64,000 nt of DNA from Patescibacteria group bacterium (lineage in GTDB: Bacteria; Patescibacteriota; Patescibacteriia; Patescibacteriales; JAQVLT01). Positions 27,673 through 47,879 of this stretch are shown here, piece by piece; the first letter of the stretch is position 1; every line of letters starts with the position of its first letter. The DNA lies in NCBI GenBank assembly GCA_028704015.1, contig JAQVLT010000006.1, positions 10,102 to 74,101 of the forward strand. Direction: 5' to 3'. Made by a program: the position numbers and the translations under genes. Below the pieces are notes generated by a model. That model had not been told where the DNA came from. It ran no database searches and was given only the letters and a program-made list of their open reading frames with translations.

Positions 27673-27820
27673 GCAAAATGGCCTTAAAAATCTAAAAATC
27701 TAAAAATCTAAAAAATTTTAGCTAACATTAAATAAAATATAAACTAAAAAATATTAGTAAATTTGACAAAAAAATCTCTCCGCCGATTTATACACAGCCG
27801 ATCTAACATAATAAAATGTA

Positions 27821-27955
27821 ATTGTTAATTGTTAATTGTTAATTGTTAATTGTTAATTGTTAATTGTTAATTGTTAATTGTTAATTGTTAATTGTTAATT
27901 GTTAATTGTTAATTGTTAATTGTTAATTGTTAATTGTTAATTGTTCTCTTACCAC
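27821..27955. repeat. tandem octamer AATTGTTA x about 17
   Basis: Perfect head-to-tail repeats read directly. They overlap the last codons and the stop of the Mur-ligase gene (..LTINN*). Confidence 0.95.
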
Positions 27956-29329
27956 CCTTCTATCATCCCAAGGAATTTTCTCGCCATTAGCCACGCAAAT
28001 CGCCTGCTCGCTCCCCTTGCCGGTAATCAAAACAATATCGCCGGTTTCGGCCAAAGACAAAGCTTTTTTAATCGCTTCGCGACGATCCAAAATATTAAAA
28101 AGGTTTTCATTCTTCTTTTTTCCCGCGTGTTCGGCGCCAACTTCCACTTGATCAATGATAATTTGCGGATCGTCATCGTAAGGATCTTCGTTGGTTACAA
28201 TAACATAATCGGCATTGGCGCCGGCAACTTTTCCCAATATCGGCCGGCGCGCCACATCACGTCCCCCGCCCGCCGAACCCAGGACATGAATAATTTTATT
28301 GTGCGGAATAAATTTTACCGTCTCATACAATTTTTCCACTGCCTTTGGCTCAAAAGCGTAATCAACAATAACAACGAATTTTTGCCCCTCATCAATCTTC
28401 TCCAACCTACCGGGAATTCCCGAGACGCTTTCCAAACCTAATTTTATTTTTTCTCGCGCTATTTCCTGCGCTTCGCCCACGCAATACGCCGCCATGGCAT
28501 TTGTCGCGTTAAATTCACCGAGCAGCTGCAAAGCAATTTTATTATCCCCAACTTGAAAACTTGTACCCTTTTCGGACGCAACAATATCACTGTACTCAAT
28601 TATTTTAATATTACTAAATAAATCTTGTTTCTTGTTTCTTGTTTCTTGTTTCTTTGCATAGCCATATTTTTCTTCCGCCCAAAAATCCAAAAAATATTCC
28701 GCGTTATCGTCATCCAAATTGGCAATGATGGTTTTTTTAACGCGCTTCAAATCTAATTTACGAATATTGCTTAGCCCTGTATGCACCGCTCTATTGTCGT
28801 CGGCGTATTTTGTTTTGCATCGTTTCAGATGAGCGAACAATTCACCCTTGGTTTTCTTGTAATTAAGAAAGCTGCCATGCGATTCAATATGCTCCGGATA
28901 CAAACCGGGAAAAACCAAAATATCATAATTAATAAAACGGTGGCGATATTGCCTAATACCTTCGGAAGTAGTTTCGATAATCGCGTACTGGCAGCCGTTC
29001 TTGATCATTTTGCGTAAAATTCCCTGGGTGAAAAATCTGCCCATCATGGTCATTTTTTTATCATTCAGCCATTCTTTATTTCCATCACCGAACATTGCCG
29101 TGGAAGTATAGCCGACTTTGTAGCCGGAATTCGCAAACATCTTAGCGACCAAATAAGTGATCGTGGTTTTTCCGGTGGTGCCAGTCACGCCGATAACAAT
29201 TAAATTATCACTCGGCCAGCGATAAACGACCGAAGCAATCCAACTCATTAGAAAATGATAGACCGGCTGGAGCGCTTTGAATAGTTTTCTGGGTAGTAAT
29301 TTTTTAATTTTAACTAATATTTTATCCAT
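27923..29329 (-). CDS. Mur ligase family protein (MurE-like)
   Basis: 468 aa with P-loop GVTGTTGKTT and Mur ligase middle and C-terminal domain patterns. It contains a CTTGTTT x4 tandem at 28624-28651. Confidence 0.7.
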   Translation of the reverse strand: MDKILVKIKKLLPRKLFKALQPVYHFLMSWIASVVYRWPSDNLIVIGVTGTTGKTTITYLVAKMFANSGYKVGYTSTAMFGDGNKEWLNDKKMTMMGRFFTQGILRKMIKNGCQYAIIETTSEGIRQYRHRFINYDILVFPGLYPEHIESHGSFLNYKKTKGELFAHLKRCKTKYADDNRAVHTGLSNIRKLDLKRVKKTIIANLDDDNAEYFLDFWAEEKYGYAKKQETRNKKQDLFSNIKIIEYSDIVASEKGTSFQVGDNKIALQLLGEFNATNAMAAYCVGEAQEIAREKIKLGLESVSGIPGRLEKIDEGQKFVVIVDYAFEPKAVEKLYETVKFIPHNKIIHVLGSAGGGRDVARRPILGKVAGANADYVIVTNEDPYDDDPQIIIDQVEVGAEHAGKKKNENLFNILDRREAIKKALSLAETGDIVLITGKGSEQAICVANGEKIPWDDRRVVREQLTINN

Positions 29330-29469: not shown

Positions 29470-30546
29470 TTAAACGGCTCTCCTTATTTTTCTCAACAAC
29501 CCGTAAATTCCATACCATCCTCTACTAAACACCGCGTCAAACGTCCCCGGATAATCATATTCAAATCCGGCGAAGCCTTTTTTGAACCGCGTTACGCCCG
29601 GCCATTTCGTTTCGCTGATACCATAAAAATCATAATATTTATAACCCAACTCTTTGGCTAATTTAATGCAGTGCCATTGCAAGGCGTATGGCGCCATTAA
29701 ATTTCTGAATTCGTTGGAAGACGCACCGTGCATATAAGTAACCGTGTCGCCAAAAAACGCCACAATATTTCCGGAAATTATTTTCCCTTGATACTTCGCG
29801 AGAAATAATTTTACATTTAATTCAGAATTTGTAATTCGTAACCTGCCTGCCGGTAGGCAAGGTTGATAATTCGTAATTGATAATTGCTTTTGATAATATT
29901 CTTTCTCATGTAATCTAAATTTATCGCGTGTCTTGGTTTGCTCCATGATCTTCCACCACTCATCAAAATCAGCGCTCCCCTCTCCTTGAGCTTTGTCCTC
30001 CCTCCTTACGAAGGAGGGAGATAGAGGGAGGTCCTGGGGTGAGGTTATTATCTCAATTCCCTTTTTCTCCGCCAACCGGATATTATATCTCGTCTTTTCA
30101 TGCATATCTTTCAATAATTCTTCCTCGGACTTAGACAAATCAAGAAGTAAAGTTTTAGATGGCTGAATGTCAATTGTGCGCGTAACGCGTAACGCATAAC
30201 GCGTAACGTCAAATGTTGGCTCAAAACGTAAAAAAATAATTTTCTCTTTCTTAGCTTTTTTATTAATTTCATTAAAGAAAAAAGTTATATGTTCTACGTT
30301 ATGCGTTATGCGAAAGATTGGTCCGCGTGGCGAATACCAATACTTCATTCCGAGCGGCAATCGCTTCTCAATTAAAGTCGCAGCCGCCATGAACTCTCCT
30401 TTATCTTCTACGCCAAAACGCAAAACTTTATTCCCCGCGCTTGCCTGAAATTCACCCCATTCATAGGACTCCAAAAACGCGCTATGCTCCTCGGCACTTA
30501 CAAATTTATTCAATTCTTCTTTATTTTTTATTTCAACTAAATTCAT
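29470..30546 (-). CDS. FemAB-family peptidoglycan interpeptide-bridge aminoacyltransferase
   Basis: 358 aa with the N-terminus ...FLESYEWGEFQ and the C-terminal GVTRFKKGFAG pattern. It carries at least 4 in-frame repeat-derived inserts (see findings). Confidence 0.7.
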   Translation of the reverse strand: MNLVEIKNKEELNKFVSAEEHSAFLESYEWGEFQASAGNKVLRFGVEDKGEFMAAATLIEKRLPLGMKYWYSPRGPIFRITHNVEHITFFFNEINKKAKKEKIIFLRFEPTFDVTRYALRVTRTIDIQPSKTLLLDLSKSEEELLKDMHEKTRYNIRLAEKKGIEIITSPQDLPLSPSFVRREDKAQGEGSADFDEWWKIMEQTKTRDKFRLHEKEYYQKQLSITNYQPCLPAGRLRITNSELNVKLFLAKYQGKIISGNIVAFFGDTVTYMHGASSNEFRNLMAPYALQWHCIKLAKELGYKYYDFYGISETKWPGVTRFKKGFAGFEYDYPGTFDAVFSRGWYGIYGLLRKIRRAV

Positions 30547-31078: not shown

Positions 31079-31897
31079 TTACAACGGACTTTTGATATTT
31101 TTTAAACTTGGTTTTGTCACCTGCGTATAAATTTGAGTAGTCCTGATATTGCAATGACCCAAGAGCTCCTGCACATATCTCACGTCTGTGCCGTTTTCTA
31201 AAAGATGCGTAGCAAAACTATGACGCAATGAATGGAAAGTTGCGTCTTTTTTTATTTTAGCTTTGGTCAAGGCATTTTCAAAAATCTTCTGCGCCGTTCT
31301 GTCGGTTAGCTTGCCGCCTTGATTACTTTCAAAAACCAAATCTTCGCCTCGCCTTCCCGCCAAATAATTTTTTAATTCTTCCCGCAATTTCTCCGGCAGA
31401 AGCGTAACCCGATCTTTTTTTCCTTTAGCTTCTTTCAAGTGAATAAAATTATTGGCGAAATCGACATCTTTTACTTTTAAATTTATGGCCTCGCTCACTC
31501 GGAAGCCAGCACCGTAAGATAAGGCAACCAATAGTTTGTGTTTGCCATTGCTTATCGCACCAATCACTTCTTCAATTTCCTCGCGCGACAAAACCACCGG
31601 CAATTTTTTGGAAGTCTTGGCAAATTTTAAATCAATCGCCACCGCGCTTTTAAAAATTTCCCGGTAAAGATGTTTAATGGCGTTGAGATGAAGATTTATC
31701 GTCTGCGACGACAAACCGCGTTCTTGTTTTTTCAGCAAATATTTTTTTATCAACTCAATCTCCGGATCTTTTTTGACTACTTTAATAAATTTAAAATAAT
31801 CAACCAAGCAACCAAGGTAGCTCTTAATCGTTTGCCGGCTGTAATTCCGCAGTTTTAATTCATTCTCAATTTTTACCAACAACTCTTTAAATTCCAT
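31079..31897 (-). CDS. tyrosine recombinase, integron-integrase-like but lacking the IntI-specific insertion
   Basis: 272 aa. Box I GAGFRVSEAINLKVKDVDF, KGKKDR, box II HSLRHSFATHLLENGTDVRYVQELLGHCNIRTTQIYTQV (R..H-x-x-R..H..Y). N-terminal SAM-like RNYSRQTIKSYL. Confidence 0.9.
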   Translation of the reverse strand: MEFKELLVKIENELKLRNYSRQTIKSYLGCLVDYFKFIKVVKKDPEIELIKKYLLKKQERGLSSQTINLHLNAIKHLYREIFKSAVAIDLKFAKTSKKLPVVLSREEIEEVIGAISNGKHKLLVALSYGAGFRVSEAINLKVKDVDFANNFIHLKEAKGKKDRVTLLPEKLREELKNYLAGRRGEDLVFESNQGGKLTDRTAQKIFENALTKAKIKKDATFHSLRHSFATHLLENGTDVRYVQELLGHCNIRTTQIYTQVTKPSLKNIKSPL

Positions 31898-32007
31898 ATT
31901 ATTATGTTATACTTAACAACAAGAGTGCTGTTACTAACAAAATACCAAAATTTCGCATAATATACAACGACAAGTAGTTAATTAACATAAAATTCGTATA
32001 AAAACTA

Positions 32008-32186
32008 GTTCCGCCGAAATCGCTCGCTTACGCTCGCTCCTTTTCGGCGGAACGGCTTCGGAATCCTTCCTCGTCCCGCTCAGTCGCTCGCTCACGCTCG
32101 CGACATCGCGGAACTCGGAATACGCGAAATTGCCTTTCGTCCCGAAGCGTCGGGACTCCGGCAACTTCGCTTATTCCGAAGCCGTT
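32008..32186 (+). repeat. 179-bp GC-rich ORF-less element, copy E1 (at the attI-like junction)
   Basis: GTTCCGCCGAAA...TTTCGGCGGAAC hairpin, then a GGCTTCGGAAT...ATTCCGAAGCC long stem, bounded by GTT on both sides. Identical to E2 and E3 by eye. Confidence 0.95.
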
Positions 32187-32290
32187 ATACGCCATAATAA
32201 AAAGCCTCTTTTATTTTTAGTAATAATTTTGGCAATTTATTTTGTGAGGTCGACGTATAATTTTTTAAGTAATATTAATTAACAAAAAAT

Positions 32291-32581
32291 ATGCGAGACA
32301 AAATTACATTTACACAAAACAACCCAGGAGGACAAACTGGATTTGACAGATTCGAAGAAATTATTACGACATTAAACCCCGATCTTCAGGCCATCCTGAA
32401 GAGAATTCCTGAAGAAAAAATTGCACAAATGCTTAAAACATTCGGTGAAGCCGGAATAACGCCTGATAAAATAAATTTCACATCTGCTCTACCTAACTTT
32501 TCTTCTAAAGATAATAATGTTATTTTTACTGGGACCAAGGCCGACGGCGAAGAAGTTAAATATGGTATTGATGTGGCTTAG
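32291..32581 (+). CDS. hypothetical protein (cassette C1)
   Basis: 96 aa. The ORF is bracketed by an about 45 bp inverted repeat (32193-32243 / 32586-32631). Confidence 0.55.
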   Translation: MRDKITFTQNNPGGQTGFDRFEEIITTLNPDLQAILKRIPEEKIAQMLKTFGEAGITPDKINFTSALPNFSSKDNNVIFTGTKADGEEVKYGIDVA

Positions 32582-32631
32582 GATAAATTAAATTGCCAAA
32601 ATTATTTTATTAATAGAGGCTTTTTATTACA

Positions 32632-32833
32632 GCGTATAACAACGCATATCTGGCTACGGAAATTGTGCATTAATAGAAACCTTGAGGTGGCACAATTTCC
32701 TCCGCCCAAATCCCGCACTAATTTTTGTGGGATTTGGATGGAGTTAAGCATTTAAAGAAGTTTGCATTAATTTATTGCTTGTTTAAGAAACAACGAAAAA
32801 TTAGCGCGGGACTTCAGATGATGCGTAAACGTT
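32632..32833 (+). other. attC-like site 1
   Basis: GCGTATAAC-AA-CGCATATCTGG ... CTTCAGATGATGCG-TAAAC-GTT. Confidence 0.65.
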
Positions 32834-33009
32834 CCGCCGAAATCGCTCGCTTACGCTCGCTCCTTTTCGGCGGAACGGCTTCGGAATCCTTCCTCGTCCC
32901 GCTCAGTCGCTCGCTCACGCTCGCGACATCGCGGAACTCGGAATACGCGAAATTGCCTTTCGTCCCGAAGCGTCGGGACTCCGGCAACTTCGCTTATTCC
33001 GAAGCCGTT
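32831..33009 (+). repeat. 179-bp element copy E2
   Basis: Identical to E1 by eye. It starts at the GTT of attC-like site 1. Confidence 0.95.
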
Positions 33010-33104: not shown

Positions 33105-33335
33105 ATGAATACTAAACCTTACTACAAATACAAAGATTTTTCTCTTTTTCACGGCAACTGCCTTGATATTTTAGCTAAAATTCCAGAAAATTCGGTTGAT
33201 ATGATCTTCGCCGATCCACCCTACCTACTCTCAAATGGCGGTTTTACCTGTCATGCTGGTCAAATGGTTAGCGTAAATAAAGGCCAGTGGGATGTAAGCA
33301 ACGGCCTAAAGAAAGATTTTGAATTTCATCTATGA
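33105..33335 (+). pseudogene. 5' fragment of a DpnA-like (beta-class, DPPY) N6-adenine DNA methyltransferase
   Basis: 76 aa. TKPYYKYKDF...SVDMIFADPPYLLSNGGF...VSVNKGQWD closely parallels the N-terminus of M2.DpnII (DpnA) as I recall it. It stops after about 25 percent of the expected length, and its TGA overlaps the next ATG. Confidence 0.7.
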
Positions 33336-34099
33336 AAATAATTTTTAATACAGCTCTTGCAAATAAATATACTAGCTTATCTCAAAAAGCCAGAGTTTTA
33401 ACTGAAACATGGGTTGACAATGAAATATTTTGTCCGAGTTGTGGGACAAATATTGAAAATTATGAAAATAATCGTCCAGTAGCTGATTTTTATTGCCCAA
33501 ATTGCAAAGAGGAATATGAATTAAAAAGCAAAAAAGATGGTTTGTCTAAAAAAATTGTTGATGGAGCTTATAAAACAATGCTTGAGAGATTAAAAAGCAA
33601 TAATAATCCGAACTTTTTTTTCTTAAATTACAATCCGATAAAATATGAGGTTTTAAACTTCTTGGTTATCCCAAAACATTTTTTTGTCCCTGATATCATC
33701 GAGAGAAGAAAACCATTATCAGAAAACGCTAGACGAGCTGGCTGGATAGGTTGTAATATCTTGCTTCAAGCTATTCCGCAAAGCGGAAAAATATTTTATA
33801 TAAAAAATGGAAATATTGAGAGCAAAGAGGATGTCTTAAAAAATTGGCAAAAAACTTTATTTTTAAGAGACTCAGACAAAGCTGAATTAAAAGGCTGGAT
33901 TTTAGATATAATGAGTTGTATTGATAAATTGAATAAAATAGAATTCTCTCTCGATGAAATTTATAATTTTGAAAACATTTTAAGCAAAAAACATCCGGAA
34001 AATAGACACATCAAAGATAAAATAAGGCAGCAACTACAATTTCTGAGAGACAAGGGGTATTTGAAATTTTTAGACAGAGGAAAATATAAATTAGTTTAA
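33332..34099 (+). CDS. DpnI-like methyl-directed (type IIM) restriction endonuclease
   Basis: 255 aa, collinear with remembered DpnI. SQKARVLTETWV, CPSC...NNRPVADFYCPNC zinc ribbon, EYELKSKK (D-EXK), NNPNFFFL, ARRAGWIGCNI, and the C-terminal wH IRQQLQFLRDKGYL..GRGKYKL. Confidence 0.8.
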   Translation: MKIIFNTALANKYTSLSQKARVLTETWVDNEIFCPSCGTNIENYENNRPVADFYCPNCKEEYELKSKKDGLSKKIVDGAYKTMLERLKSNNNPNFFFLNYNPIKYEVLNFLVIPKHFFVPDIIERRKPLSENARRAGWIGCNILLQAIPQSGKIFYIKNGNIESKEDVLKNWQKTLFLRDSDKAELKGWILDIMSCIDKLNKIEFSLDEIYNFENILSKKHPENRHIKDKIRQQLQFLRDKGYLKFLDRGKYKLV

Positions 34100-35250: not shown

Positions 35251-35348
35251 GTCGCCTAACAACCGATATCCGGTTCGGGGCTCAGCTCGCCCCTCTCCCA
35301 TATTTTTGCTCCCGTTGGTCGCAAAAACATCGGATATCGCGAAACGTT
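35251..35348 (+). other. attC-like site 2
   Basis: GTCGCCTAAC-AA-CCGATATCCGG ... CATCGGATATCG-CGAAAC-GTT. Its R'' is the exact reverse complement of GTTAGGCGAC at 33007. Confidence 0.7.
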
Positions 35349-35524
35349 CCGCCGAAATCGCTCGCTTACGCTCGCTCCTTTTCGGCGGAACGGCTTCGGA
35401 ATCCTTCCTCGTCCCGCTCAGTCGCTCGCTCACGCTCGCGACATCGCGGAACTCGGAATACGCGAAATTGCCTTTCGTCCCGAAGCGTCGGGACTCCGGC
35501 AACTTCGCTTATTCCGAAGCCGTT
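35346..35524 (+). repeat. 179-bp element copy E3
   Basis: Identical to E1 by eye. Confidence 0.95.
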
Positions 35525-35922: not shown

Positions 35923-35938
35923 AAATTTTTTTAAAACA

Positions 35939-36058
35939 TCATATAACAAAGAATATCTGGTTCAAGAATTTTTCTTGTTAATGTATAAGGAGTAAAAATT
36001 CTTTCACCCAAATTTTATTTCACTACGTTCAATAAAACTTCAGATATTCTTATACGTT
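35939..36058 (+). other. attC-like site 3
   Basis: TCATATAAC-AAA-GAATATCTGG ... TTCAGATATTC-TTATAC-GTT. Confidence 0.65.
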
Positions 36059-36232
36059 CCGCCGAAATCGCTCGCTTACGCTCGCTCCTTTTCGGCGGAA
36101 CGGCTTCGGAATCCTTCCTCGTCCCGCTCAGTCGCTCGCAAGCTCGCGACATCGCGGAACTCGGAATACGCGAAATTGCCTTTCGTCCCGAAGCGTCGGG
36201 ACTCCGGCAACTTCGCTTATTCCGAAGCCGTT
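36056..36232 (+). repeat. 177-bp element copy E4 (short variant GCTCGCAAGCTCGC)
   Basis: Same as E1 except for a 2-nt shorter inner hairpin. Confidence 0.95.
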
Positions 36233-39811: not shown

Positions 39812-39830
39812 TTAATTAAAATGCTATAAT

Positions 39831-39896
39831 GAGTTTTAGATTATGGGCATTCACCCCTAACCCCTCTGCCCAAAATCTAAAACGAAAAAAACAAAA
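39831..39896 (+). repeat. conserved hairpin with C-rich loop (TTTTAGATTaTGGGCA-TTCACCCCTAACCCCTC-TGCCCAAAATCTAAAA), copy 1
   Basis: A near-identical copy lies at 47763-47825. Both sit after the last ORF of a cassette. Confidence 0.85.
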
Positions 39897-39954
39897 CTGA
39901 ATTCTTTTTGCGAGTAATCCCAATAGCTATCGGGATTAAAGAAAAATATATACA

Positions 39955-40054
39955 TCAGCTAACACGGCATATCCGGTTGCGGCTTTTATACAAAAGCCTA
40001 CACCCACATTTGCCTCCGCTACGCTACGGCAAACATCAGATATGCCGAAACGTT
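39955..40054 (+). other. attC-like site 4
   Basis: TCAGCTAAC-AC-GGCATATCCGG ... CATCAGATATGCC-GAAAC-GTT. Its R'' is the reverse complement of GTTAGCTGA at 36230. Confidence 0.7.
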
Positions 40055-40228
40055 CCGCCGAAATCGCTCGCTTACGCTCGCTCCTTTTCGGCGGAACGGC
40101 TTCGGAATCCTTCCTCGTCCCGCTCAGTCGCTCGCAAGCTCGCGACATCGCGGAACTCGGAATACGCGAAATTGCCTTTCGTCCCGAAGCGTCGGGACTC
40201 CGGCAACTTCGCTTATTCCGAAGCCGTT
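40052..40228 (+). repeat. 177-bp element copy E5 (short variant)
   Basis: Identical to E4 by eye. Confidence 0.95.
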
Positions 40229-40420
40229 ATACGCAATTCAAAAAATATTTTTCTTTTAATAAGGAATTTTGACAGGCTTTTTAAAAAGGGGAATAAATTT
40301 GTTTTTTTATTTATTAGAAAGGGGTAATATTGTGTTTTTTCTGCTTTTGGAGGCGCAGAAAAAACGATTTACTTACAAGGGGAAAACGGGTACTATACAA
40401 TTACTTATTAGGAATAAACT

Positions 40421-41614
40421 ATGGCAAATAAAAATCTTACAAATGCTAAAAAGGCAAAGAATGATGAATTTTATACTCAATTTTCAGATATTCAAAAAGA
40501 AGTTGAGTCCTATCTTGAATATGACGCTAACACTTTCAAAGGGAAAGTAGTTTATAGCAACTGCGACGACCCATTTGAGAGTAATTTCTTCCGCTATTTT
40601 GTCCTAAATTTTAAAAGACTAGGGATGAAAAGACTTATTGCAACTAGTTACAAACCGTCACCAGTTGCGAATACTCAATTAGAGCTTTTTGGAAATGATA
40701 CTACTCTTAAACCCATGAAAGGACGCCCGAAAATAACTGCTAATAAATTCATTATTAACGAAGTTGGTGATGTGAATGGCGACGGTTCTTTTACGCTAGA
40801 AGATATTGCCCTACAACTTAAAGCAAACAAAAACAACGAATGGTCTCCGCTTGAGGGTGATGGTGACTTCAGGAGTGATGAGTGTGTCGAGTTACTCAAG
40901 CAATCTGATATTGTCGTCACTAATCCTCCGTTTAGTTTATTTCGTGAATATATAACTCAACTCTTTGAACATAAAAAACAATTTCTAATCATCGGAAATC
41001 TCAATGCAATAACTTACAAGGAAATTTTTCCAATGATCAAAGCGAATAAAGTTTGTTTGGGAAATAATGCAAGAGTTAATGGTGGTGCAATGTTTTATGA
41101 GATTCCAGAAGCTGTTGCAAACTTGGATCAAGTTCGTGAAATCAAAACGGATGAAAAAGGTAAAAAGGTATATATAACAAGAGTCCAGGGAGTTCGTTGG
41201 TTTACAAACCTTGACCACGGACGACTACACCAACCTATTCCCCTAATGAGTCATGCCGACGTCTTAAAGTTCAGTACAAATAAGCCATTCGTACACTATG
41301 ACAATTATGATGCTATTGAAATTGCTTTAGTAAAAAATATTCCTAAAGACTACAACGGCGTTATGGGCGTACCAATCAGTTTTTTAGATAAGTATTCACC
41401 CGATCAATTTGAGATTTTAGGGACAAGCGATAACGGTCTCGTAGATGACAAGTACAAAACATCGCTAGGTTTAAAAAAACAATTTGTAGAAGACTACTAC
41501 AAAGCTGGGGGCACTGGTGCCTACAAAGAAGGTAATCCAACAGCGGGTTTTTACGAAGACGGCATCGCAAAAATGGCTTACAAGCGAATTTTTATAAAAC
41601 ACAAGAAAAACTAA
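40421..41614 (+). CDS. N6-adenine DNA methyltransferase, EcoRI-methylase-like family
   Basis: 397 aa with N-terminal NDEFYTQ and catalytic VVTNPPFSLF (NPPF). Confidence 0.75.
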   Translation: MANKNLTNAKKAKNDEFYTQFSDIQKEVESYLEYDANTFKGKVVYSNCDDPFESNFFRYFVLNFKRLGMKRLIATSYKPSPVANTQLELFGNDTTLKPMKGRPKITANKFIINEVGDVNGDGSFTLEDIALQLKANKNNEWSPLEGDGDFRSDECVELLKQSDIVVTNPPFSLFREYITQLFEHKKQFLIIGNLNAITYKEIFPMIKANKVCLGNNARVNGGAMFYEIPEAVANLDQVREIKTDEKGKKVYITRVQGVRWFTNLDHGRLHQPIPLMSHADVLKFSTNKPFVHYDNYDAIEIALVKNIPKDYNGVMGVPISFLDKYSPDQFEILGTSDNGLVDDKYKTSLGLKKQFVEDYYKAGGTGAYKEGNPTAGFYEDGIAKMAYKRIFIKHKKN

Positions 41615-41615
41615 C

Positions 41616-42878
41616 ATGAAAAAAGTTAAAGTTTCAATTCAAGATGAAAACACGTTGGTTTTATTAGAAGATGGATCAAGGGGTGATTTAATTGACCTCA
41701 GGTCCATACATGAAGCTGATATTGATAAAACAACCATTACAAATGTGGTTAACTCCATAAAACGTGATGTTTTTAATGCTGAACTCCAAAAAGAAAAAAA
41801 TGTCATTAAGCGTGAAAATGAATTAAAGCTTGAACTCAAGGAAAAAGAGTTCAAAAGCCGCGCAAAAGAAGATTTAATGGAGAAAGACAAGGAAATTATT
41901 GCACTTAATTCAGAACTAAAAAATATCGCTGAGAAAACAGAATCAGCTATAAAACTTAAAGATATTCAAGAGAAGCAAAAGATAGAGGAGGAATACAGAG
42001 AAAAGTTGAACGAGAAAGAAATTGAGATAAATAACATCAAGCACGAGAAAGAATTAAGCGAGGAAAAACTAAAAGAACAAATCAAGTCAACAGAGACAGC
42101 TCTTGTTTCACTAAAGGAAATGCGCACCAAGATGAGTACTAAGATGATTGGTGAGTCTCTTGAAGTACACTGCGAAAATGAATTTAATCGTATTCGTCAT
42201 ATAGCATTTCCTAATGCAAAGTTTGGTAAAGATAATGCCGTATCAGAATCTGGTTCAAAGGGAGACTACGTTTATCGCGAAGTTGATGAAGATGGCAATG
42301 AGATTTTGTCCATTATGTTTGAAATGAAGAACGAGGATGACATTACCGCTACAAAGAAAAAGAATAAAGATTTCTTTAAGGAACTAGATAAAGATCGTCA
42401 GGAGAAAAAATGTGAATATGCTGTCTTGGTAAGTCTCCTTGAAAAAGATAATGAATATTATGATGACATTGTTCCTGTTTATGAATATAAACTTATGTAT
42501 GCTATCCGCCCCCAGCATTTCATTACTATCATTGGATTTCTACGACAAGCAAATATAAAATCACAGCACCTCAAGCGTGAAATTCACATACTTAACAATC
42601 AAAATGTTGACGTTTCAAACTTTGAAGCAAACATGAATGCATTTAAGGAGGCATTCTCAAGAAATTTCAGTTTGGCATCAACACAATTCTCTAACGCTAT
42701 TGCAGAGATAGATAAAACCATTGACCATTTAAATAAAGTCAAAGAAAATCTTCTAAAATCTGATAACAACCTACGACTTGCAAATAATAAGGCCACCGAC
42801 TTATCTATAAAGAAACTAACCTCCAATAGTCCAAGCGTAGCCAAAGCATTCGAAGAAATTAATAATGAAAATAAATAA
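41616..42878 (+). CDS. DUF2130 protein (coiled coil plus C-terminal PD-(D/E)xK-like module)
   Basis: 420 aa. [47 protein letters not shown] match the DUF2130 pattern from memory. Confidence 0.7.
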
Positions 42879-42880
42879 TT

Positions 42881-44044
42881 ATGAAAACCACACTAAAAAA
42901 TGACATCACGATAAAAGAAGTTTGCGATGGTTTTGTATATAATGAACTTGAAGGCAAAGGGCTGTTCGGTCTCTCGGGCAAACTAACTATTCAGCCAGAG
43001 TATCAGCGTAATTACATTTACGCTGACGGCAAATGTGACGTTGCTGTAATTGACTCAATTTTAAAAGGTTACCCAATAGGTTTAATTTATTTCAACCATG
43101 TTAGCACTGATAAATTTGAAGTGCTCGACGGACAGCAACGCATCACTAGTATTGGTCGGTTTGTGACAGGCAAGTTTGCCGTCAAAGATAAAAATGGACA
43201 TGAACAATATTACAGTGGCATGGCTACCAGTCAACGCGAGCAAATAATGAACGCTAAATTGTTAGTGTATTTGTGTAAAGGTGATGAGCTTGAGATTAAG
43301 GATTGGTTTAAAACTATCAATATCGCCGGAGTACCATTAACCGAACAAGAGATTCTCAATGCAGTATATTCTGGAACATTTGTTACTCGCGCTCGCGAAG
43401 AATTCAGTAATAGCCAAAATACCAACATTCAGAAATGGAGTACCTATATTGCAGGTGATATCAAACGCCAAGCATATTTAGAACGGGCTTTAGATTGGGT
43501 TTCTGGTGGAGAAATCGATAGCTACATGAGTAAACATCGGAACGATAAAAACATCACTGAACTGAAAAAGCATTTCGATACTGTCATTGACTGGGTTTCA
43601 ACCACCTTCACGGACGTTGAAAGTGAAATGAAGGGTCTTGAGTGGAACAGGCTTTACCAAACTTACCACAAGAAAAAATACAACCCAGCAATAGTTTCTG
43701 CTAAGGTTCAGAAACTCTATGCTGACGGCTTTGTAAAAAGTCGTAAAGGCATTTTTGAATATGTTTTAGGTGGAGAAGTAGAAACAAAACTGCTTGAAGT
43801 TCGAGTATTTGAAGACCCGACAAAACGTTCAGTGTATGAAGCTCAAACTTCCGCCGCAAAAAATAAAGGCATTTCAAATTGCTCGCATTGCGCGATTGGT
43901 CACGATGCGAACAAAACGAAAATTTGGGGTTTGAGCGATATGGATGCCGATCATGTTTCGGCTTGGAGCAAGGGCGGTGCAACAGATGTAAAAAATTGTG
44001 AGATGTTGTGTAAGACGCACAATCGAGCAAAGGGAAATCGTTAA
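42881..44044 (+). CDS. DUF262 (ParB/GmrS-like, DGQQR) plus C-terminal HNH endonuclease
   Basis: 387 aa. [19 protein letters not shown], and C-terminal [32 protein letters not shown]. Confidence 0.75.
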
Positions 44045-44145
44045 CCAAATAATTAAAATCAGTATGGAAAATGCTTAAAAAATAAATTGAGGATATAATG
44101 GAGAAAGTGAAATGTACATATATAATTTAGGCTAAAGACAGCAAT

Positions 44146-44173
44146 AAAAAACGCCTACCGGGGGCGTTTTTTG
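44146..44173 (+). terminator. intrinsic terminator
   Basis: AAAAAACGCC-TACCGGG-GGCGTTTTTTG. Confidence 0.75.
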
Positions 44174-44247
44174 TATTAATAGAGTTAAATACAGAAAGGT
44201 AAAGCATAAAAGAAAATGATAATTATTTGTTTTTGTGTCCCATTTTG

Positions 44248-44276
44248 TTGCGCTGGTGTCCCAAATATGCTAATAT
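44248..44276 (+). promoter_or_regulatory. promoter TTGCGC-17-TAATAT flanked and overlapped by a GTGTCCCA direct repeat
   Basis: tttGTGTCCCAttttgTTGCGCtgGTGTCCCAaatatgcTAATAT. It lies 40 nt upstream of the AAA ATPase gene. Confidence 0.5.
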
Positions 44277-44316
44277 ATTAAGTGTGGATAAAATAAATTC
44301 ATTTCATTTAAAATAA

Positions 44317-45363
44317 ATGTATATGCGCAAAAAAAACATTTTAAATTTAATTAAATATCATGCCGAAAAAAATGAGGCGGGTTTTAAAAATGAAGCCTAT
44401 GACATAGCAAGATATTTCGATTCTACTGGTGACTCTGAATTGGCTCAATATATTATGGCCTTACTGTCTGGCGCTAATACTTTTGTGCCGCAGGACAACG
44501 AATACAATCTTCCATTTTTTATGAAAGCAAATTTAGATAGTAGCAAATCCTTCCCACTTCCCACTCTTATAACAAACGATATAGTGGGCATTATAAATTC
44601 AATTGGACATAAGATTGGGGTTAACAAATTCTTATTTGAGGGTGATCCTGGAACAGGCAAAACTGAAACAGCAAAACAAATTGCTCGTATTCTTGAACGA
44701 GATTTATATGTGATAGATTTTGATAGTGTTATAGATAGCAAGCTTGGTCAAACGTCCAAAAACATTGCTTCCGTTTTTACAGAGTTACAAAGATTGCCTC
44801 ACCCAGAAAAAGTCATTATTTTATTTGACGAGATAGACGCAATAGCTTTAGATAGAATTAACTCTAACGATTTACGAGAAATGGGGAGAGTAACTTCTTC
44901 TGTTTTAAAAGGGTTGGATGGATTAAATGATGAAGTTGTTCTTATAGCCACCACTAATCTTTTTGGGCAATTCGATAAGGCTTTACTTAGAAGATTTGAT
45001 TCAATTATAAATTTTAATAGGTATAACAAAGAAGAATTGATTGAAGTCGCAGAATCTATGTTAAATGAGTTTTTAACAAAATTTAAATTTGCTAGTCGTA
45101 ATATGAGGCTTTTTAAAAAAATATTTTTAACATTAGACCATATTCCTTATCCTGGTGATTTGAAAAATATAATTAAAACCGCACTAGCATTTAGTGATCC
45201 AAATAATGAATATGATTACTTAAAAAAATTATATGAATCTATACAACCTAAAGACAAAAAGATAGATTTAAAAAAATTACAGTACAGCGGTTTTACGGTT
45301 AGAGAAATAGAAATATTAACAGGAGTTTCTAAAAGCCAAGTGTCGAGAGAACTAAATGTCTAA
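44317..45363 (+). CDS. AAA+ ATPase, IetA-like, with C-terminal HTH
   Basis: 348 aa. Walker A GDPGTGKTE, Walker B VIILFDEIDA, ATTN sensor. C-terminal FTVREIEILTGVSKSQVSREL. Confidence 0.75.
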   Translation: MYMRKKNILNLIKYHAEKNEAGFKNEAYDIARYFDSTGDSELAQYIMALLSGANTFVPQDNEYNLPFFMKANLDSSKSFPLPTLITNDIVGIINSIGHKIGVNKFLFEGDPGTGKTETAKQIARILERDLYVIDFDSVIDSKLGQTSKNIASVFTELQRLPHPEKVIILFDEIDAIALDRINSNDLREMGRVTSSVLKGLDGLNDEVVLIATTNLFGQFDKALLRRFDSIINFNRYNKEELIEVAESMLNEFLTKFKFASRNMRLFKKIFLTLDHIPYPGDLKNIIKTALAFSDPNNEYDYLKKLYESIQPKDKKIDLKKLQYSGFTVREIEILTGVSKSQVSRELNV

Positions 45364-47611
45364 AATTATGAACAATATTCTTCAATTAAAAGGTGTCCTT
45401 CAAGAACGTTCGCATATTGGCCGGCCAAGCTCTCGTAATGTTCCAAAAAATTCCCCAACTATAAATTCTGATAAACTAAAAAATTTGGTTAGACAGCTCC
45501 AGGATCTTGCTGATTATTGGACTAGGCAAAATATTATTAAGGGTTGCTTAGTTGATGTTTGTTATATCGACGTCATCGCTAAGAGTAATAGAATTAGTGG
45601 GTTATTATCAAGTAGTGGCTCTGTAAATGACTCTGTTGTTGGTGCAAGATTTGCTAATGAAGAGACAAGAAAACATGTGATTACGCATCATGTCAGCGAA
45701 AAAGTAATTCAGGATACAATTAAAAAATTAGAAGGCTGTATAAAGCTATTAGATGAAATATTTAGCGGAAAGATAACCCATGATTTGATTGGTGGTTTAA
45801 ATGATAAAAATATAAAGTATGAAAAATATGGGGTAACAAAAACAAATTTTCGAAATATAATTGTAGATTCACATTATGTAGAAGGTTTTACGGTTCCAAA
45901 TAACAGTGCAAACACAAATAATAGATCAATAATTACAATATATAAAACTAATGTTGGTTTAACTGAATTAATGAAAGATATCGGTATAAACGTTCAGCCT
46001 GATAAAATACTAAGTGAAACCACCTTGCTTTTATACCCAGATGAAATCAAACTCTTGTCAGACAAGGCACCATATCTAATTGCAATGTCGACAGAAGATA
46101 TATCTAAACTAAGTTTTAAAGATATTGTTGATGGCGCAAACAGCGAATCTGCTATAAAAACAATAGGATCACCCAAAGACGAACCTATTGTTGGCGTAAT
46201 AGATACTTTATTTGATGAATCAGTGTATTTTTCTGAATGGGTGGATTTTAGAAAAATGATCAATAAAGAAATACCTACGGAATCCAAAGATTATGTTCAC
46301 GGAACATCGGTAAGTTCAATTATTGTTGATGGGCCAACTATTCACCCAGAGCTAGATGATGGGTGTGGCAGATTCAGAGTTAGGCATTTTGGTGTAGCCG
46401 CACAAGGACAGTATAGCGCCTTTTCTATTATGAAAGCCATAAAAGAGATAGTTACTTCAAATCCAGATATAAAGGTATGGAATCTGTCTTTGGGATCCGA
46501 CAGAGAAATTAATCCCAATTTTATATCACCAGAAGCAGCTATACTAGATGAAATTCAATATGAAAATAATGTTATTTTTGTAATAGCAGGCACTAATAAA
46601 CGCGACGATGAAAGTAGGGTAGAAAAAATGATTGGCTCGCCCGCCGATTCAATTAATGCTATAGTTGTAAATTCGGTAAATAGTAAGGGATCTCCAGCAA
46701 CCTATTCCAGAAAGGGGTTAGTTTTATCATTTTTTAATAAACCAGACGTTAGTAGTTATGGAGGTGATAATGGCGATTATCTTAGGGTGTGTACACCAAC
46801 TGGCGAAGGTTTGTGCAGTGGTACTTCATACGCAGCTCCATGGGTAACTCGAAAAATTGCTTACTTGATAGAAGTACTCGGACTTAATCGAGAAGTCGCA
46901 AAAGCGCTAATTGTAGACGCTGCTGCTGGGTGGAATAGTATTGGCAATAATACTAAATTAGCACCCTTTGTGGGCCATGGGGTAGTACCTAAAAATATAG
47001 AAAACATTATAAAAGCGGATAATGATGAAATAAAGTTTATCATAAGTGGTATCTCTGAGAAATGGGATACATATGCTTATAATTTACCTGTTCCAACACA
47101 TAATAATAAACACCCTTTTGTTGCCAAAGCTACCTTATGTTATTTTCCCGGCTGCTCTATTAATCAAGGAGTTGATTACACAAACACAGAACTAGATATA
47201 TATTTTGGTAGAATTAAAGACAAGGGTATTAAGTCTATAAACAAGAATTGTCAAAATAATGATGACGGCGAAAAACATTATATATACGAAGGTAATGCCA
47301 GGGAATTTTACCGAAAATGGGACAACACTAAACATATAAATGAAATTCTTACAGATAGAGTTCATGCACGCGACGTTTACGATAAAGGCATGTGGGGACT
47401 AAGTATTAAATCAAAAGAAAGATTGAGTAGGCGTAGCAATGGTATTAATTTTGGTTTAGTTGTGACATTAAAGGAGATTTATGGAGTTAATAGAATTAAT
47501 GATTTTGTACATCAATGCGAATTACTTGGCTGGTTGGTAAATCGTGTAGATATAGATAATAAAATTGATATCTATAACAAGGCTCAGGAAATAGTTACAT
47601 TTGATAAGTAA
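45356..47611 (+). CDS. S8 subtilisin-like serine peptidase, IetS-like
   Basis: 751 aa with triad contexts VGVIDTLFD, HGTSVSSII, GTSYAAPWV. It overlaps the ATPase gene by 8 nt. Confidence 0.75.
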   Translation: MSKIMNNILQLKGVLQERSHIGRPSSRNVPKNSPTINSDKLKNLVRQLQDLADYWTRQNIIKGCLVDVCYIDVIAKSNRISGLLSSSGSVNDSVVGARFANEETRKHVITHHVSEKVIQDTIKKLEGCIKLLDEIFSGKITHDLIGGLNDKNIKYEKYGVTKTNFRNIIVDSHYVEGFTVPNNSANTNNRSIITIYKTNVGLTELMKDIGINVQPDKILSETTLLLYPDEIKLLSDKAPYLIAMSTEDISKLSFKDIVDGANSESAIKTIGSPKDEPIVGVIDTLFDESVYFSEWVDFRKMINKEIPTESKDYVHGTSVSSIIVDGPTIHPELDDGCGRFRVRHFGVAAQGQYSAFSIMKAIKEIVTSNPDIKVWNLSLGSDREINPNFISPEAAILDEIQYENNVIFVIAGTNKRDDESRVEKMIGSPADSINAIVVNSVNSKGSPATYSRKGLVLSFFNKPDVSSYGGDNGDYLRVCTPTGEGLCSGTSYAAPWVTRKIAYLIEVLGLNREVAKALIVDAAAGWNSIGNNTKLAPFVGHGVVPKNIENIIKADNDEIKFIISGISEKWDTYAYNLPVPTHNNKHPFVAKATLCYFPGCSINQGVDYTNTELDIYFGRIKDKGIKSINKNCQNNDDGEKHYIYEGNAREFYRKWDNTKHINEILTDRVHARDVYDKGMWGLSIKSKERLSRRSNGINFGLVVTLKEIYGVNRINDFVHQCELLGWLVNRVDIDNKIDIYNKAQEIVTFDK

Positions 47612-47762
47612 CCGTTAGTTTACAATTCCATCGGAGCTGTGTAAAAACAAAAGTACGTTTAATAGTATCACCAAAAAGTTTTAGGGATCAAACCCAAATA
47701 AAAGACAAAAATTCCCTCCCCTTAAACCCCTTCCTTTTTGCCTTTTATTTGAAAAGAATAAG

Positions 47763-47825: not shown

Positions 47826-47879
47826 TTTATTATTAAGTAGCCTATCAAAATATTATTTTATTTAAAATATTTTTGAACA

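Follow-up and report, generated by a model that had tools for sequence, protein, structure and literature searches.

Classical integrons, such as IntI1 with attI1 and VchIntIA with its VCR arrays, comprise a recombinase gene that diverges from a one-directional cassette array, together with an attI beside this gene, which carries direct repeated motifs and a core ending in AAAC-N2|GTTRRRY. In attI1, the core reads AAAC-AAA|GTTAGGC. Their attC sites join an R'' box ending in AAC and an R' box starting with GTT through L''/L' stems, and crossover at this GTT leaves the cassettes circularly permuted. All these features recur at a locus within a 64,000-nt stretch of Patescibacteria DNA (hereafter the window, meaning the whole stretch analysed), with the permutation deduced from sequence. 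Further likenesses are defence-rich cassettes, a solitary cassette at a secondary GTT site and, as in sedentary chromosomal integrons, attCs that are homogeneous within the array. Unlike in classical integrons, the window recombinase lacks the IntI additional domain; the unpaired spacer of the attCs measures 1 x 4 nt (A versus AAAC) instead of approximately 5 x 5–6 nt; the R box is longer (ATCnnnnAAC/GTTnnnnGA, with four freely varying positions); the L boxes share a semi-conserved core, ATAT, that is similar to the attI motif; several genes lie in some of the cassettes, which reach up to 7.8 kb; and the host is a bacterium of the candidate phyla radiation (CPR).

Archaeal integrons (Ghaly et al. 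2022, PMC9668308) were likewise found by MAG mining outside the classical hosts, with a semi-conserved putative attI beside the integrase gene. The archaeal IntIs were reported to keep the IntI-specific additional domain (PMC9668308), whereas the CPR proteins lack it. Single-Xer systems (XerA, XerS/difSL, XerH/difH) resemble the locus in that the window protein matches XerA in size and fold class, with a score at the threshold of the XerA model, and in that the site adjoins the gene; IMEX and Acinetobacter pdif modules also accumulate at recombinase sites. In contrast to these Xer systems and modules, the window sites are long folded palindromes with covariation rather than a 28-bp duplex, the cassettes are circularly permuted at GTT, the sites share the same orientation, and a distinct attI delimits one side of the array. 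Smyshlyaev, Barabas and Bateman (bioRxiv 10.1101/542381) describe the 'Cand' subgroup of simple tyrosine recombinases, a clade related to Xer and restricted to candidate phyla. They regard its members as putative enzymes of dimer resolution and report neither cassette arrays nor attI or attC sites. The window protein is probably a member of this subgroup. Finally, ORF-less integron cassettes and attC parasites (IS1111-attC and group IIC-attC introns) resemble a 179-bp element of the window in being non-coding, junction-bounded, repeated and located at att sites. It differs from them in being itself a cassette that owns an attC together with a conserved extra hairpin and long-range stem, and in being devoid of transposase, reverse transcriptase and terminal inverted repeats. 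It also stands out by its seven near-identical copies in one array and by its recurrence in several CPR lineages with covarying boxes. No published description of such a system was found in the literature on integrons or attC in CPR, Patescibacteria and Parcubacteria, on integron-like recombinases or on CALIN.

The best explanation for positions 31898–32010, with a probability of roughly 0.8, is that they form the attI of a cassette platform resembling an integron, in a genome of the Patescibacteria (CPR). The features of the site and of the adjoining gene are as follows.

31079–31897, minus strand: gene for a 272-aa tyrosine recombinase related to Xer and IntI that lacks the IntI-specific insertion (Pfam, NCBIfam, structure alignments)
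31898–31915, minus strand: block next to the recombinase start codon (tatgYtata), including GTTATAC (alignment of 18 loci; L047)
31952–31967, plus strand: attI site A, TTCGCATAATATACAA, a direct motif copy that includes TATACAAC and the TAATAT of a previously proposed Pc; TYCGY in 17 of 20 loci
31974–31991, no strand assigned: position of attI site B, found as the inverted copy tATTATACGAAAAC in 9 of 20 loci
31993–32007, plus strand: attI site C, TTCGTATAAAAACTA, the left arm of the core; consensus across the family TTCGYATAWAAACGA, with the motif abutting the junction GTT on its 5' side in 16 of 20 loci
32008–32010, plus strand: junction GTT, putative crossover point; homology of the first element copy (E1) sets in at G32008, and GTT is present in 20 loci

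A common architecture was found upstream of the recombinase gene in 20 related loci, whose recombinases are 50–86% identical and nearly all derive from Patescibacteria/CPR MAGs. It consists of TTCGYATAW (site A), approximately 41 bp, and TTCGYATAWAAACGA|GTT (site C). As in integrons, an attI with conserved A/(B)/C elements ending at GTT lies directly upstream of the recombinase gene, diverges from the array and is specific to the lineage of its recombinase. The A–C spacing was 40–42 bp in all 13 loci measured and exactly 41 bp in nine of them; in the window, the direct TTCGYATAW copies start at 31952 and 31993. Site C resembles the L'-spacer end of the attC sites, which end in CTTCGCATATnnnnnAAC|GTT. 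The first-pass annotation had read the junction as an attI-type site at a bare GTT created by site-specific cassette insertion, and this is well supported. Its proposed comparison of related contigs gave a positive answer, because the relatives keep attI and GTT but carry different cassettes thereafter: the junction GTT is followed by 18 different 12-mers across the 20 loci. The junctions in relatives were listed by pattern search and the list is possibly incomplete. L047, the closest relative with genomic context (recombinase 86% identical), has a near-identical attI with a methyltransferase cassette after the GTT, and in another sample of the same strain the attI-element junction is unchanged; this strain is present in sample SRR22315503.

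The half-sites proposed in the same annotation fared differently. The four words it quoted are present, namely GTTATAC at 31906–31912, TTAACAAC at 31913–31920, GTTACTA at 31930–31936 and TATACAAC at 31961–31968, but only TATACAAC falls within a conserved motif, at the tail of site A; the other three are not conserved in relatives as half-sites. The counts of GTTAY and GTTRRRY words in the 113-bp stretch are at chance level, with GTTAY found twice versus 0.43 expected, a number reached in 7% of stretches of equal length in this AT-rich sequence. The conserved repeat of the site, judged from the aligned loci, is TTCGYATAW and not GTTAYxx. Across the window, TTCGYATAW is not enriched (9 matches versus 5 expected), so its significance comes only from cross-genome conservation. 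A promoter scan with the sigma-70 consensus returned nothing above noise; the Pc candidate CTAACA-16-CATAAT (31934–31961) scores 9/12, and four consensus matches were counted versus 1.7 in shuffles. A TAtAAT-like word within site A is conserved and may belong to the binding motif.

For the recombinase, Pfam returned PF00589 at 1e-42 and PF13495 at 2e-9, and HxxR and C-terminal Y motifs were seen in the translation. As expected for an integron, it has the catalytic domain of a tyrosine recombinase and an N-terminal SAM-like domain. In NCBIfam, it scored 218.9 bits against XerA_Arch (NF040815; cutoff 220, i.e. 1.1 short) and 216.4 bits against the integron integrase TIGR02249 (cutoff 265), the latter match being split in two pieces; it fell far under the cutoffs of the XerC and XerD equivalog models. 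In structure-based comparisons, XerA (4a8e) aligned end to end with it, and residues ~212–243 of VchIntIA (2a3v) had no counterpart. Approximately 42 residues were gapped against positions 194–248 of IntI1. The IntI-specific additional domain near patch III (intI_Cterm of IntegronFinder), comprising some 35–40 residues, is absent from the window recombinase, which on these alignments is no IntI. The system is therefore not a canonical integron, and the likening of the site to the IntI-binding sites of attI1 is an analogy rather than membership. According to Messier and Roy (2001), as relayed by PMC9668308, and to an eLife paper (PMC7790495), attC recombination requires the additional domain (I2 helix region). 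The absent I2 helix region counts against an integron-like reading of the window system.

The proposed link between the recombinase and the sites comes from their conserved adjacency. In the proposed mechanism, the recombinase would bind the TTCGYATAW sites beside its own divergent gene and, as integron integrases do, would carry out strand exchange at G|TT, with attI and a circular cassette's folded attC as the partners; by the same analogy, crossover would fall at the G|TT of the 32008 junction. The block at 31898–31915 is kept in the closest relatives of the window locus, and the TATAAC on its minus strand, at about 31906–31911, is a candidate -10 of a leaderless recombinase transcript.

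The array spans 32008 to ~52200 and holds approximately 11 gene cassettes (C) in addition to copies of the 179-bp element (E). Its parts, and a solitary cassette outside it, are listed below.

32008–32186, plus strand: E1, first cassette of the array (176-bp unit plus shared GTT; copy alignment)
32105–32190, plus strand: E1's own attC, with a layout that parallels the gene-cassette attCs
32185–32833, plus strand: cassette C2, with an ORF at 32291–32581 (96 aa)
32831–33009, plus strand: E2, identical to E1, after the attC of C2
35251–35524, plus strand: attC of C3, junction G35346, then E3 (35346–35524)
35938–36232, plus strand: attC of C4, R'' ATCATATAAC, junction G36056, then E4
39954–40228, plus strand: attC of C5, R'' ATCAGCTAAC, junction G40052, then E5
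47879–48181, plus strand: attC of C6, R'' AGCGTATAAC, junction G48003, then E6
48543–48602, plus strand: short attC without element, junction G48593, dividing C7a from C7b (nhmmer half-site profiles; sequence)
48999–49315, plus strand: attC of C7b, junction G49119, then E7
49777–49832, plus strand: 'empty' attC of C8 without an element, junction G49826; R'' ATCGTACAAC matches GTTGTAC, the start of C8
50518–50690, plus strand: attC of C9 with its junction at G50659, followed by a 25-bp remnant (L' only) and a second junction, G50684
51446–51537, plus strand: 'empty' attC of C10, GCCGAAAC|GTTAGGC, junction G51531
51558–52187: last cassette, S51 peptidase, after the attC of C10
59681–60274, minus strand: solitary copy of C8 outside the array, with a full attC; homology starts exactly at GTTGTACGAAAT

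The cargo is rich in defence genes (DpnI, Shedu SduA, GmrSD, EcoRI methylase), and integron cassettes have been reported as defence-rich (bioRxiv 10.1101/2024.07.02.601719). The solitary C8 copy at 59.7 kb, ~96% identical to C8 as estimated from the alignment, breaks exactly at GTT, and its left flank is the end of an unrelated ORF. Filled and empty attCs coexist in the array. A match at 50641–50661 that had been taken for a truncated element is actually the L'-R' end of C9's own attC, and a claim of perfect alternation of elements and gene cassettes (P = 1/3432) was withdrawn because the hidden attC at 48543–48602 breaks it. Rfam at gathering thresholds and a tRNA scan gave no matches in the whole window.

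The gene-cassette attCs have the form R''(ATCnnnnAAC)-A-L''...L'-AAAC-G|TT and, as in integrons, are imperfect palindromes (R''-L''...L'-R') in which AAC/GTT is conserved and structure is kept over sequence. In C2, R''-L'' occupies 32633–32654 (GCGTATAAC, complementary to its own start GTTATACGC) and L' 32814–32830; the R'' of C3, GTCGCCTAAC, is the reverse complement of its own start GTTAGGCGAC, and that of C7b, ATCCGATAAC, matches its own start GTTATCGG. Over 31 distinct cassettes from 11 arrays, R'' agreed with its own start at 6/6 positions in 16 and with the next start in three. Mean R'' scores were 5.10 for own starts, 3.23 for next starts and 3.18 for unrelated starts. When R'' was picked by L-box pairing alone, the own start was matched 6/6 in 10 of 18 cases and the next start in one of 18. 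The R helix was 90.7% paired with four covarying pairs when closed on the own start, versus 71% paired when closed on the next start; the L helix was 92.4% paired, with compensatory changes at eight of 11 pairs. None of 500 shuffles matched the observed covariation score, the sites having been preselected for at least nine of 11 L pairs. In three to four cassettes (C7a, C9, C10), R'' is mismatched to the own start. In integrons, attC recombines as a folded single (bottom) strand and is resolved by replication; in the array, the covariation shows no more than selection for pairing within a strand. Circular permutation at G|TT, another integron hallmark, is seen both in the pairing of R'' with the own 5' end and in the occurrence of the same cassette behind different left neighbours: in the window the leader of C6 lies next to the element, in L018 it adjoins attI, and in L047 its neighbour is the attC of a gene cassette.

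The alternative that survives best, albeit an unlikely one, takes the recombinase as the housekeeping single Xer of CPR bacteria, the site as its dif, as in XerS/difSL and XerH/difH, and the array as a pile-up of Xer-exploiting modules (IMEX/pdif-like) joined by double-stranded exchange rather than by the folded single-strand reaction of integrons. The end-to-end alignment with XerA and the near-cutoff score of the XerA model speak for it, as do the great abundance of the family in CPR, with members annotated as XerD, and the placement by Smyshlyaev et al. of the 'Cand' subgroup, as a putative dimer-resolution enzyme, next to Xer. At one locus (L060), the gene sits amid the housekeeping genes def and fmt, and in relatives the arms A/B and C/R' are paired in inverted orientation, much like core sites. 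A duplex dif site has two inverted arms of ~11 bp around a centre of 6–8 bp. The inverted pairs A/B and B/C occur in nine of 20 relatives, but B is degenerate in the window genome and in L047; the loss of inverted site B from the window genome counts against this alternative. Covarying L and R stems and an R'' that pairs with its own cassette start are a signature of circular cassettes with folded sites and are unexpected for duplex dif sites, and one MAG holds two such recombinases, each with its own attI (L001, L011), subject to possible binning errors. Modules of the pdif type alternate in orientation, unlike the array sites, which all point the same way. A dual role in dimer resolution and cassette capture is conceivable.

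The attI of an integron-like platform remains the preferred reading, and the 179-bp element bears on it directly. Its seven GC-rich copies lie at 32008–32186, 32831–33009, 35346–35524, 36056–36232, 40052–40228, 48003–48181 and 49119–49315. E1 is identical to E2 and E3 over 179/179 positions, and E7 is the most diverged copy, with five substitutions, a 2-nt deletion and a 20-nt palindromic insert; the copies diverge more with greater distance from attI. Upstream of E1 stands AAAAACTA, and upstream of every other copy the conserved block AAACATCAGATATGCCGAAAC, so E1 lacks their upstream partner. The earlier observation that this copy begins at GTT 32008 with no R''/L'' before it was thus borne out, similarity to the other copies starting exactly at G32008. 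E1 contains a hairpin, GTTCCGCCGAAA..TTTCGGCGGAAC, at 32008–32053, and a long-range stem, GGCTTCGGAAT/ATTCCGAAGCC. Its own attC consists of R'' ATCGCGGAAC (32105–32114), T, L'' CGGAATACGCGAA (32116–32128), a loop, L' TTCGCTTATTCCG (32166–32178), the spacer AAGCC and G|TT (32184), with an R'' complementary to GTTCCGC, with which the element itself starts.

The element is not the attC of the neighbouring cassettes, and the first-pass annotation needs correction on this point: the cassettes own attCs upstream of it and 'empty' attCs without element are found at 48593, 49826, 50684 and 51531. The element is instead a separate ORF-less cassette, comprising ~100 nt of structured GC-rich 'cargo' and its own ~80-nt attC. 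Like other ORF-less cassettes, it has GTT junctions on both sides, its own R''/L''/L', and indels among copies; these 2- and 20-nt indels exclude a coding function. Minus-strand ORFs of 55–60 aa inside it were rejected as genes, as their start codons fall in the variable neighbouring cassette and the copies differ by the 2-nt and 20-nt indels. The element occupies attI once (E1) and follows the attCs of six gene cassettes, behaving like a selfish or accessory cassette that colonises att sites. Its insertion at attI shows that a single recombination system treats the GTT of attI and those of the attCs as equivalent targets. E1 thus lies closer to attI than any other cassette, and it is probably the most recent insertion. 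A circular or tandem junction of the element would read ATTCCGAAGCC-GTT-CCGCCGAAATCGC, and an 'empty attI' junction GTATAAAAACTA-GTT-ATACGCCATAAT.

Five related loci (L003, L012, L013, L014 and L015) contain elements of the same architecture with covarying boxes, which in four of these loci take the first cassette position next to attI; in L012, L013 and L014, the elements were recognised by architecture and not by sequence. An nhmmer search of the related loci with E1 returned only partial copies, at contig ends of L003 and L015. A scan of the metagenome_contigs set with the first 20 nt of the element gave 11 loci, all of them chance matches in genomes of 53–73% G+C, and no element.

It is very improbable that the element is a non-autonomous transposon (MITE or IS-derived, cf. 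IS1111-attC and group IIC-attC) that inserts at GTT with a 3-bp target duplication, served by a transposase encoded elsewhere, in which case E1 would be uninformative about attI. Filled sites with GTT on both sides and empty sites with one GTT formally equal a 3-bp target-site duplication, near-identical copies would fit a recent burst, and some elements are known to target attC sites specifically. However, the terminal inverted repeats and cognate transposase of a MITE or IS derivative were not found in the 179-bp repeat: its left end, CCGCCGAAAT, does not correspond to the reverse complement of its right end, GGCTTCGGAA, and the ORF lists of the 64 kb contain no transposase or second recombinase. 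The element also has a full attC; AAC, the complement of the 'duplicated' GTT, is part of its R'', and this R'' fits the start of the element. The gene cassettes break at the same GTT. The left flanks, ACTA at attI versus AAAC at attC, misfit a model with a 5' target word, and insertion of the IS200/IS605 type 3' of a fixed target word was rejected because of this difference. That there is no discrete site, E1 being merely a longer or truncated repeat copy and the attI likeness an AT-rich chance effect, is practically untenable: GTTAY at chance level and TTCGYATAW without enrichment when taken alone (9 versus 5 expected) would suit it, but it is already contradicted by the attI architecture conserved in 20 loci with the element present or absent, no relative shows the upstream extension of the element that the first-pass annotation had set against an insertion, and E1 breaks exactly at the G common to all other junctions.

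Beyond the window, we lean slightly towards the view that CPR/Patescibacteria carry a widespread, undescribed integron class, with an Xer-like ('Cand'-type) integrase without the I2/additional domain and with arrays in which ORF-less cassettes that propagate themselves live as additional parasites. In that case, the complete integron scheme of attI, folded attC, G|TT circles and defence arrays can do without the I2/additional domain, to which the rise of single-strand attC recombination has been ascribed; the class would either represent a state ancestral to I2 or have arisen independently. Integron-type capture by an Xer-like enzyme would then reach a very large radiation of reduced genomes, whose defence and accessory genes are poorly understood. 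The I2 insertion as the innovation permitting attC recombination would become directly testable with a natural enzyme that seemingly acts on attC-like sites without it. Likewise, the attI, with its clear three-motif layout, would be usable for binding and recombination assays, and the element would provide a clean case of a selfish cassette that is little beyond a recombination site. The IntI-specific domain is the basis for defining and searching integrons; therefore, IntegronFinder would score the CPR loci at best as integrase-less attC clusters. As a point for annotation, many CPR contigs break exactly at the attI-element junction because the element is repeated.

The 110 bp separating the recombinase start codon (minus-strand gene, 31079–31897) from position 32008 are AT-rich and terminate in ..TTCGTATAAAAACTA|GTT, where the GC-rich element E1 begins (G32008–32186). 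The element is present seven times in the window in uniform orientation; E1, E2 and E3 are identical across 179 nt, and the copies farther from the recombinase carry 1–5 substitutions and a 2-nt deletion, to which the last copy adds a palindromic insertion of 20 nt. In a multiple alignment, likeness between E1 and the other copies starts precisely at the G of GTT; upstream, E1 has unrelated sequence, whereas all other copies are preceded by a conserved block of consensus AAACATCAGATATGCCGAAAC. Because this upstream difference is confined to E1 and the break falls at GTT, the main observation of the first-pass annotation is correct, namely that E1 abuts the recombinase upstream region at a bare GTT and, unlike the other copies, lacks an upstream partner block. 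We read region 31898–32010 as the attI of an integron-like platform and E1 as an ORF-less cassette inserted there, with a probability of roughly 0.8. This reading builds on the observed junction, a conserved attI architecture, the structure and covariation of the attC sites, a circular-permutation signature and modular breaks at GTT.

At 49826, 50684 and 51531 the conserved block stands by itself, with no element behind it, and abuts GTTRRRY directly (..GCCGAAAC|GTTAGGC); a fourth element-free site lies at 48593. With the sequence upstream of each block included, the order is R'' (ATCnnnnAAC), one A, L'' (e.g. CGGCATATCCGG), a variable region with internal hairpins, L' (CAGATATGCCG), the 4-nt spacer AAAC and GTT, and this arrangement, R''-A-L''...L'-AAAC-GTT, is the integron attC layout. 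The element is placed between the attC spacer and the R' half, with a GTT at either side. The idea that the element itself is the attC of the gene cassettes was rejected, as the cassette attC block exists at the four element-free sites.

A scan of one genome per species returned 24 recombinase relatives at 50–72% identity, nearly all from Patescibacteria/CPR MAGs, and a protein search yielded hundreds more homologues of ~273 aa. The attI comparison was made on the 20 loci having enough upstream sequence.

Conserved attI motifs between the recombinase start and the junction GTT, with their occurrence among the 20 loci.
Site A: TTCGYATAW..., 17 of 20 loci
Site B: inverted copy of the motif, 9 of 20 loci (about half)
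Site C: TTCGYATAWAAACGA, with GTT directly 3', 16 of 20 loci

The A-to-C spacing was 40–42 bp in all 13 loci measured (41 bp in nine), and 18 different 12-mers followed the junction GTT across the 20 loci, each consistent with GTTRnnnGAAAT, the cassette-start consensus. Among relatives with context, the closest is locus L047 (protein 86% identical). Its attI is almost identical (..tactaacaaaataccaaaaTTTCGCATAAGATACAA..GTTCGTATAAGAACGA|GTT) and is followed by a methyltransferase cassette, the R'' of which (ATCCGATAAC) agrees with that cassette's own start. Related contigs can thus carry other cassettes behind the same GTT, the comparison proposed in the first-pass annotation, and this supports a discrete insertion site; the scenario named there as refuting, with the element extended upstream, was seen in none of the relatives compared. 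The attI–element junction is identical for the same strain in a second sample, in which the contig stops 32 nt inside the element. On a 107-kb Moranbacteria contig, the homologous recombinase adjoins def and fmt, and attI and array are flanked by the recombinase on one side and housekeeping genes on the other, which makes the platform chromosomal.

The four short words previously picked out in the window's attI region were all found in place, yet the proposed GTTAYxx half-sites do not rise above chance: GTTAY occurs twice against 0.43 expected, and 7% of equal-length windows reach two. Among those words, TATACAAC falls within a conserved motif (the tail of site A) and none of the others is so placed. 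GTTATAC lies within a block adjoining the start codon that is kept in close relatives and may hold the -10 of a leaderless recombinase transcript.

Integron crossover at G|TT implies that R'' pairs, as it would in the circle, with the first bases of its own cassette rather than those of the one that follows. Of 17 window units, 12 had an exact 7-mer complement of the own start in their attC region, and none had a complement of the next start. Across 31 distinct cassettes from 11 arrays, with the junction lists of relatives taken from pattern searches, the six variable or adjacent positions gave 16 perfect matches to the own start and 3 to the next, with mean match scores of 5.10 (own), 3.23 (next) and 3.18 (unrelated starts). 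When R'' was picked by L-box pairing alone, independently of R', perfect matches numbered 10/18 for the own start and 1/18 for the next. In an alignment of 18 sites, preselected at ≥9 of 11 L pairs, the L helix was 92.4% paired, 8 of its 11 pairs showing compensatory changes; the R helix was 90.7% paired with four covarying pairs when closed on own starts, and 71% paired with variable columns mostly unpaired when closed on the next start. The observed covariation was reached by 0 of 500 shuffles, and sliding the partners by 1–3 columns lowered pairing to 17–37%. Two apparent exceptions were settled by profile scan: R''–L'' of cassette C2 was located at 32633–32654 and matches its own start, and the former "C7" consists of two cassettes, the second of which matches its own start.

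Modules also change neighbours at GTT. Cassette C6 has a 5' leader (GTTATACGCAATTCAAAAAATATTTTTC...) that stands behind the element in the window, behind attI in L018 and behind a gene-cassette attC in L047 (92% identity across 163 nt). Cassette C8 (139-aa ORF) has a solitary second copy outside the array (59681–60274, minus strand; ORF at 59818–60237), ~96% identical over the shared stretch as estimated from the alignment. Homology begins exactly at GTTGTACGAAAT, and an unrelated Gly-rich ORF ends next to it. The attC is full-length in the solitary copy and a shortened hybrid in the array copy. Lying in inverted orientation between two unrelated genes, 7.5 kb past the array, the solitary copy looks like a secondary-site insertion. 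Such insertions are known for integron cassettes.

The recombinase combines the catalytic domain of tyrosine recombinases with a SAM-like domain at its N-terminus, and scored almost the same on two models, 218.9 bits on the archaeal XerA model (cutoff 220) and 216.4 bits on the integron-integrase model (cutoff 265), the latter match being in two pieces. Its alignment with the XerA structure is unbroken, whereas that with VchIntIA consists of two segments that skip ~residues 212–243, and a pairwise comparison with IntI1 leaves ~42 gapped residues within IntI1 194–248; the IntI-specific domain is therefore absent. This domain defines integron integrases (PMC9668308; PMC4889954) and is described as the acquisition enabling single-strand recombination (PMC7790495). 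Among Xer-related recombinases, the window protein is probably a member of the 'Cand' subgroup, known only from candidate phyla and presumed to resolve chromosome dimers (bioRxiv 10.1101/542381).

The main rival explanation, that the enzyme is a housekeeping Xer, the site its dif and the modules exchanged as duplex DNA, would suit the Xer-like protein and the abundance of its family, but we consider it unlikely in view of the covarying stems, the pairing of R'' with the own start and the uniform site orientation. A dual role of the recombinase is possible. Under the integron-like reading, the window recombinase would catalyse the cassette reaction, with cleavage at G|TT and a folded single strand as the substrate. 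No published integron-type arrays in CPR, or with such a recombinase, were found in the open-access literature and bioRxiv; an earlier description of this system may exist elsewhere in the literature.

Two loci from one MAG (CAYTIK01) labelled Bdellovibrionales, L001 and L011, carry paralogous recombinases that share 72% and 61% identity with that of the window, and both have an attI and cassettes of their own. Several other matches are labelled Gammaproteobacteria or Saccharibacteria. For such short contigs bounded by repeats, either the taxonomic labels or the binning seem unreliable.

The element owns an attC of the same design, comprising R'' ATCGCGGAAC (32105–32114), T, L'' CGGAATACGCGAA, L' TTCGCTTATTCCG, the spacer AAGCC and G|TT at 32184, and is thus formally a cassette without a gene. 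Some 100 nt of structured sequence lie 5' of this attC; they include a perfect 12-bp hairpin, in which the start of the cassette (GTTCCGCCGAAA) pairs with another R''-like box, and a long-range stem (GGCTTCGGAAT/ATTCCGAAGCC). It is non-coding, since its copies tolerate 2-nt and 20-nt indels and minus-strand ORFs over it begin in variable neighbouring sequence. That it is a transposon is highly improbable, as it has no terminal repeats, no transposase is encoded in the window, and the element carries a complete attC. ORF-less GC-rich units were also found in L013 (complete, first cassette at attI), in L003, L012 and L015 (first cassette, contig stopping inside) and in L014 (two copies, both behind gene-cassette attC). 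They have in common the start hairpin, second R'' box, long-range stem and attC, and their boxes covary between genomes (CCGC/GCGG in the window; AGGC/GCCT, GTGC/GCAC and AGAC/GTCT elsewhere), which identifies the element as a cassette lineage travelling with the system. It is often the attI-proximal cassette across loci, where it would be the most recent arrival, and its behaviour suggests a selfish unit.

The 20-nt palindromic insert (GCCTGCCTACCGGCAGGCAG) occupies a hairpin loop of the most distal copy (49143–49162), and a similar palindrome (CCTGCCTGCCGGTAGGCAAGG) occurs within a 59-nt repeat outside the array (29820–29878 and 62228–62286); both may represent a small REP-like mobile palindrome. 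Many contigs (L002, L003, L004, L012, L015, L017, L023 and L063) stop within ~100–250 bp upstream of the recombinase start, several of these inside an ORF-less element. The repeats seem to break assemblies systematically at attI, so such arrays are probably under-represented in MAGs.

The cassette set is defence-rich, as recently reported for integron cassettes (bioRxiv 10.1101/2024.07.02.601719).

Products of cassettes in the window array.
DpnI-type endonuclease behind a truncated methyltransferase ORF
Bro-N protein
Cupin
Trypsin-like protein with Shedu SduA nuclease
40226–48003, five-gene cassette: EcoRI-type methylase, DUF2130, GmrSD (GmrSD/HNH), AAA ATPase, subtilase
Small unknown proteins
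DUF218
S51 peptidase

The 76-aa product of the ORF at 33105–33335 has a DNA-methyltransferase motif (FADPPY) in its N-terminal part. This ORF stops early, overlapping the beginning of a complete gene for a methyl-directed endonuclease of the DpnI family (33332–34099), and looks like a truncated methylase beside an enzyme cutting methylated DNA. The five-gene cassette is unusually large (7.8 kb); a half-site profile scan detected no internal attC, and several cassettes may have fused or decayed to give this unit. A conserved ~160-nt 5' leader with a stem-loop (40226–40400; ..AAAGGGGTAATATTGTGTTTTTTCTGCTTTTGGAGGCGCAGAAAAAACGATTT..) is common to different-gene cassettes, being found in first or third cassettes of L018, L047, L005 and L010, and may be a regulatory leader or promoter module. 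In cassettes C5 and C6, the stretch from the last ORF to the attC contains a hairpin repeat of 64 nt (GTTTTAGATTTTGGGCA..CACCCCTAACCCCTC..TGCCCAAAATCTAAAAC; 39826–39889 and 47758–47821); it recurs in an L047 cassette (~2980–3010, minus strand) and represents a conserved 3' module of cassettes.

Two junction GTTs enclose a 25-bp unit (50659–50686) that has an L'-spacer half site only (TTAAAACATCGCATACGCCGAAACG) and was probably left behind when a cassette was deleted. Past the S51 peptidase, the last cassette gene, a left half resembling R''–L'' (ATCACACAACACTATATATCTAGTT) with no good L'–R' end occupies 52205–52340, and the array seems to terminate in this degenerate attC; in L016, the gene standing first behind attI encodes a homologous S51 peptidase. 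Finally, ~20 tandem TAATTGT heptamers (27791–27979) lie at and just past the 3' end of ORF 27923–29329 (minus strand), overlapping its last few codons.
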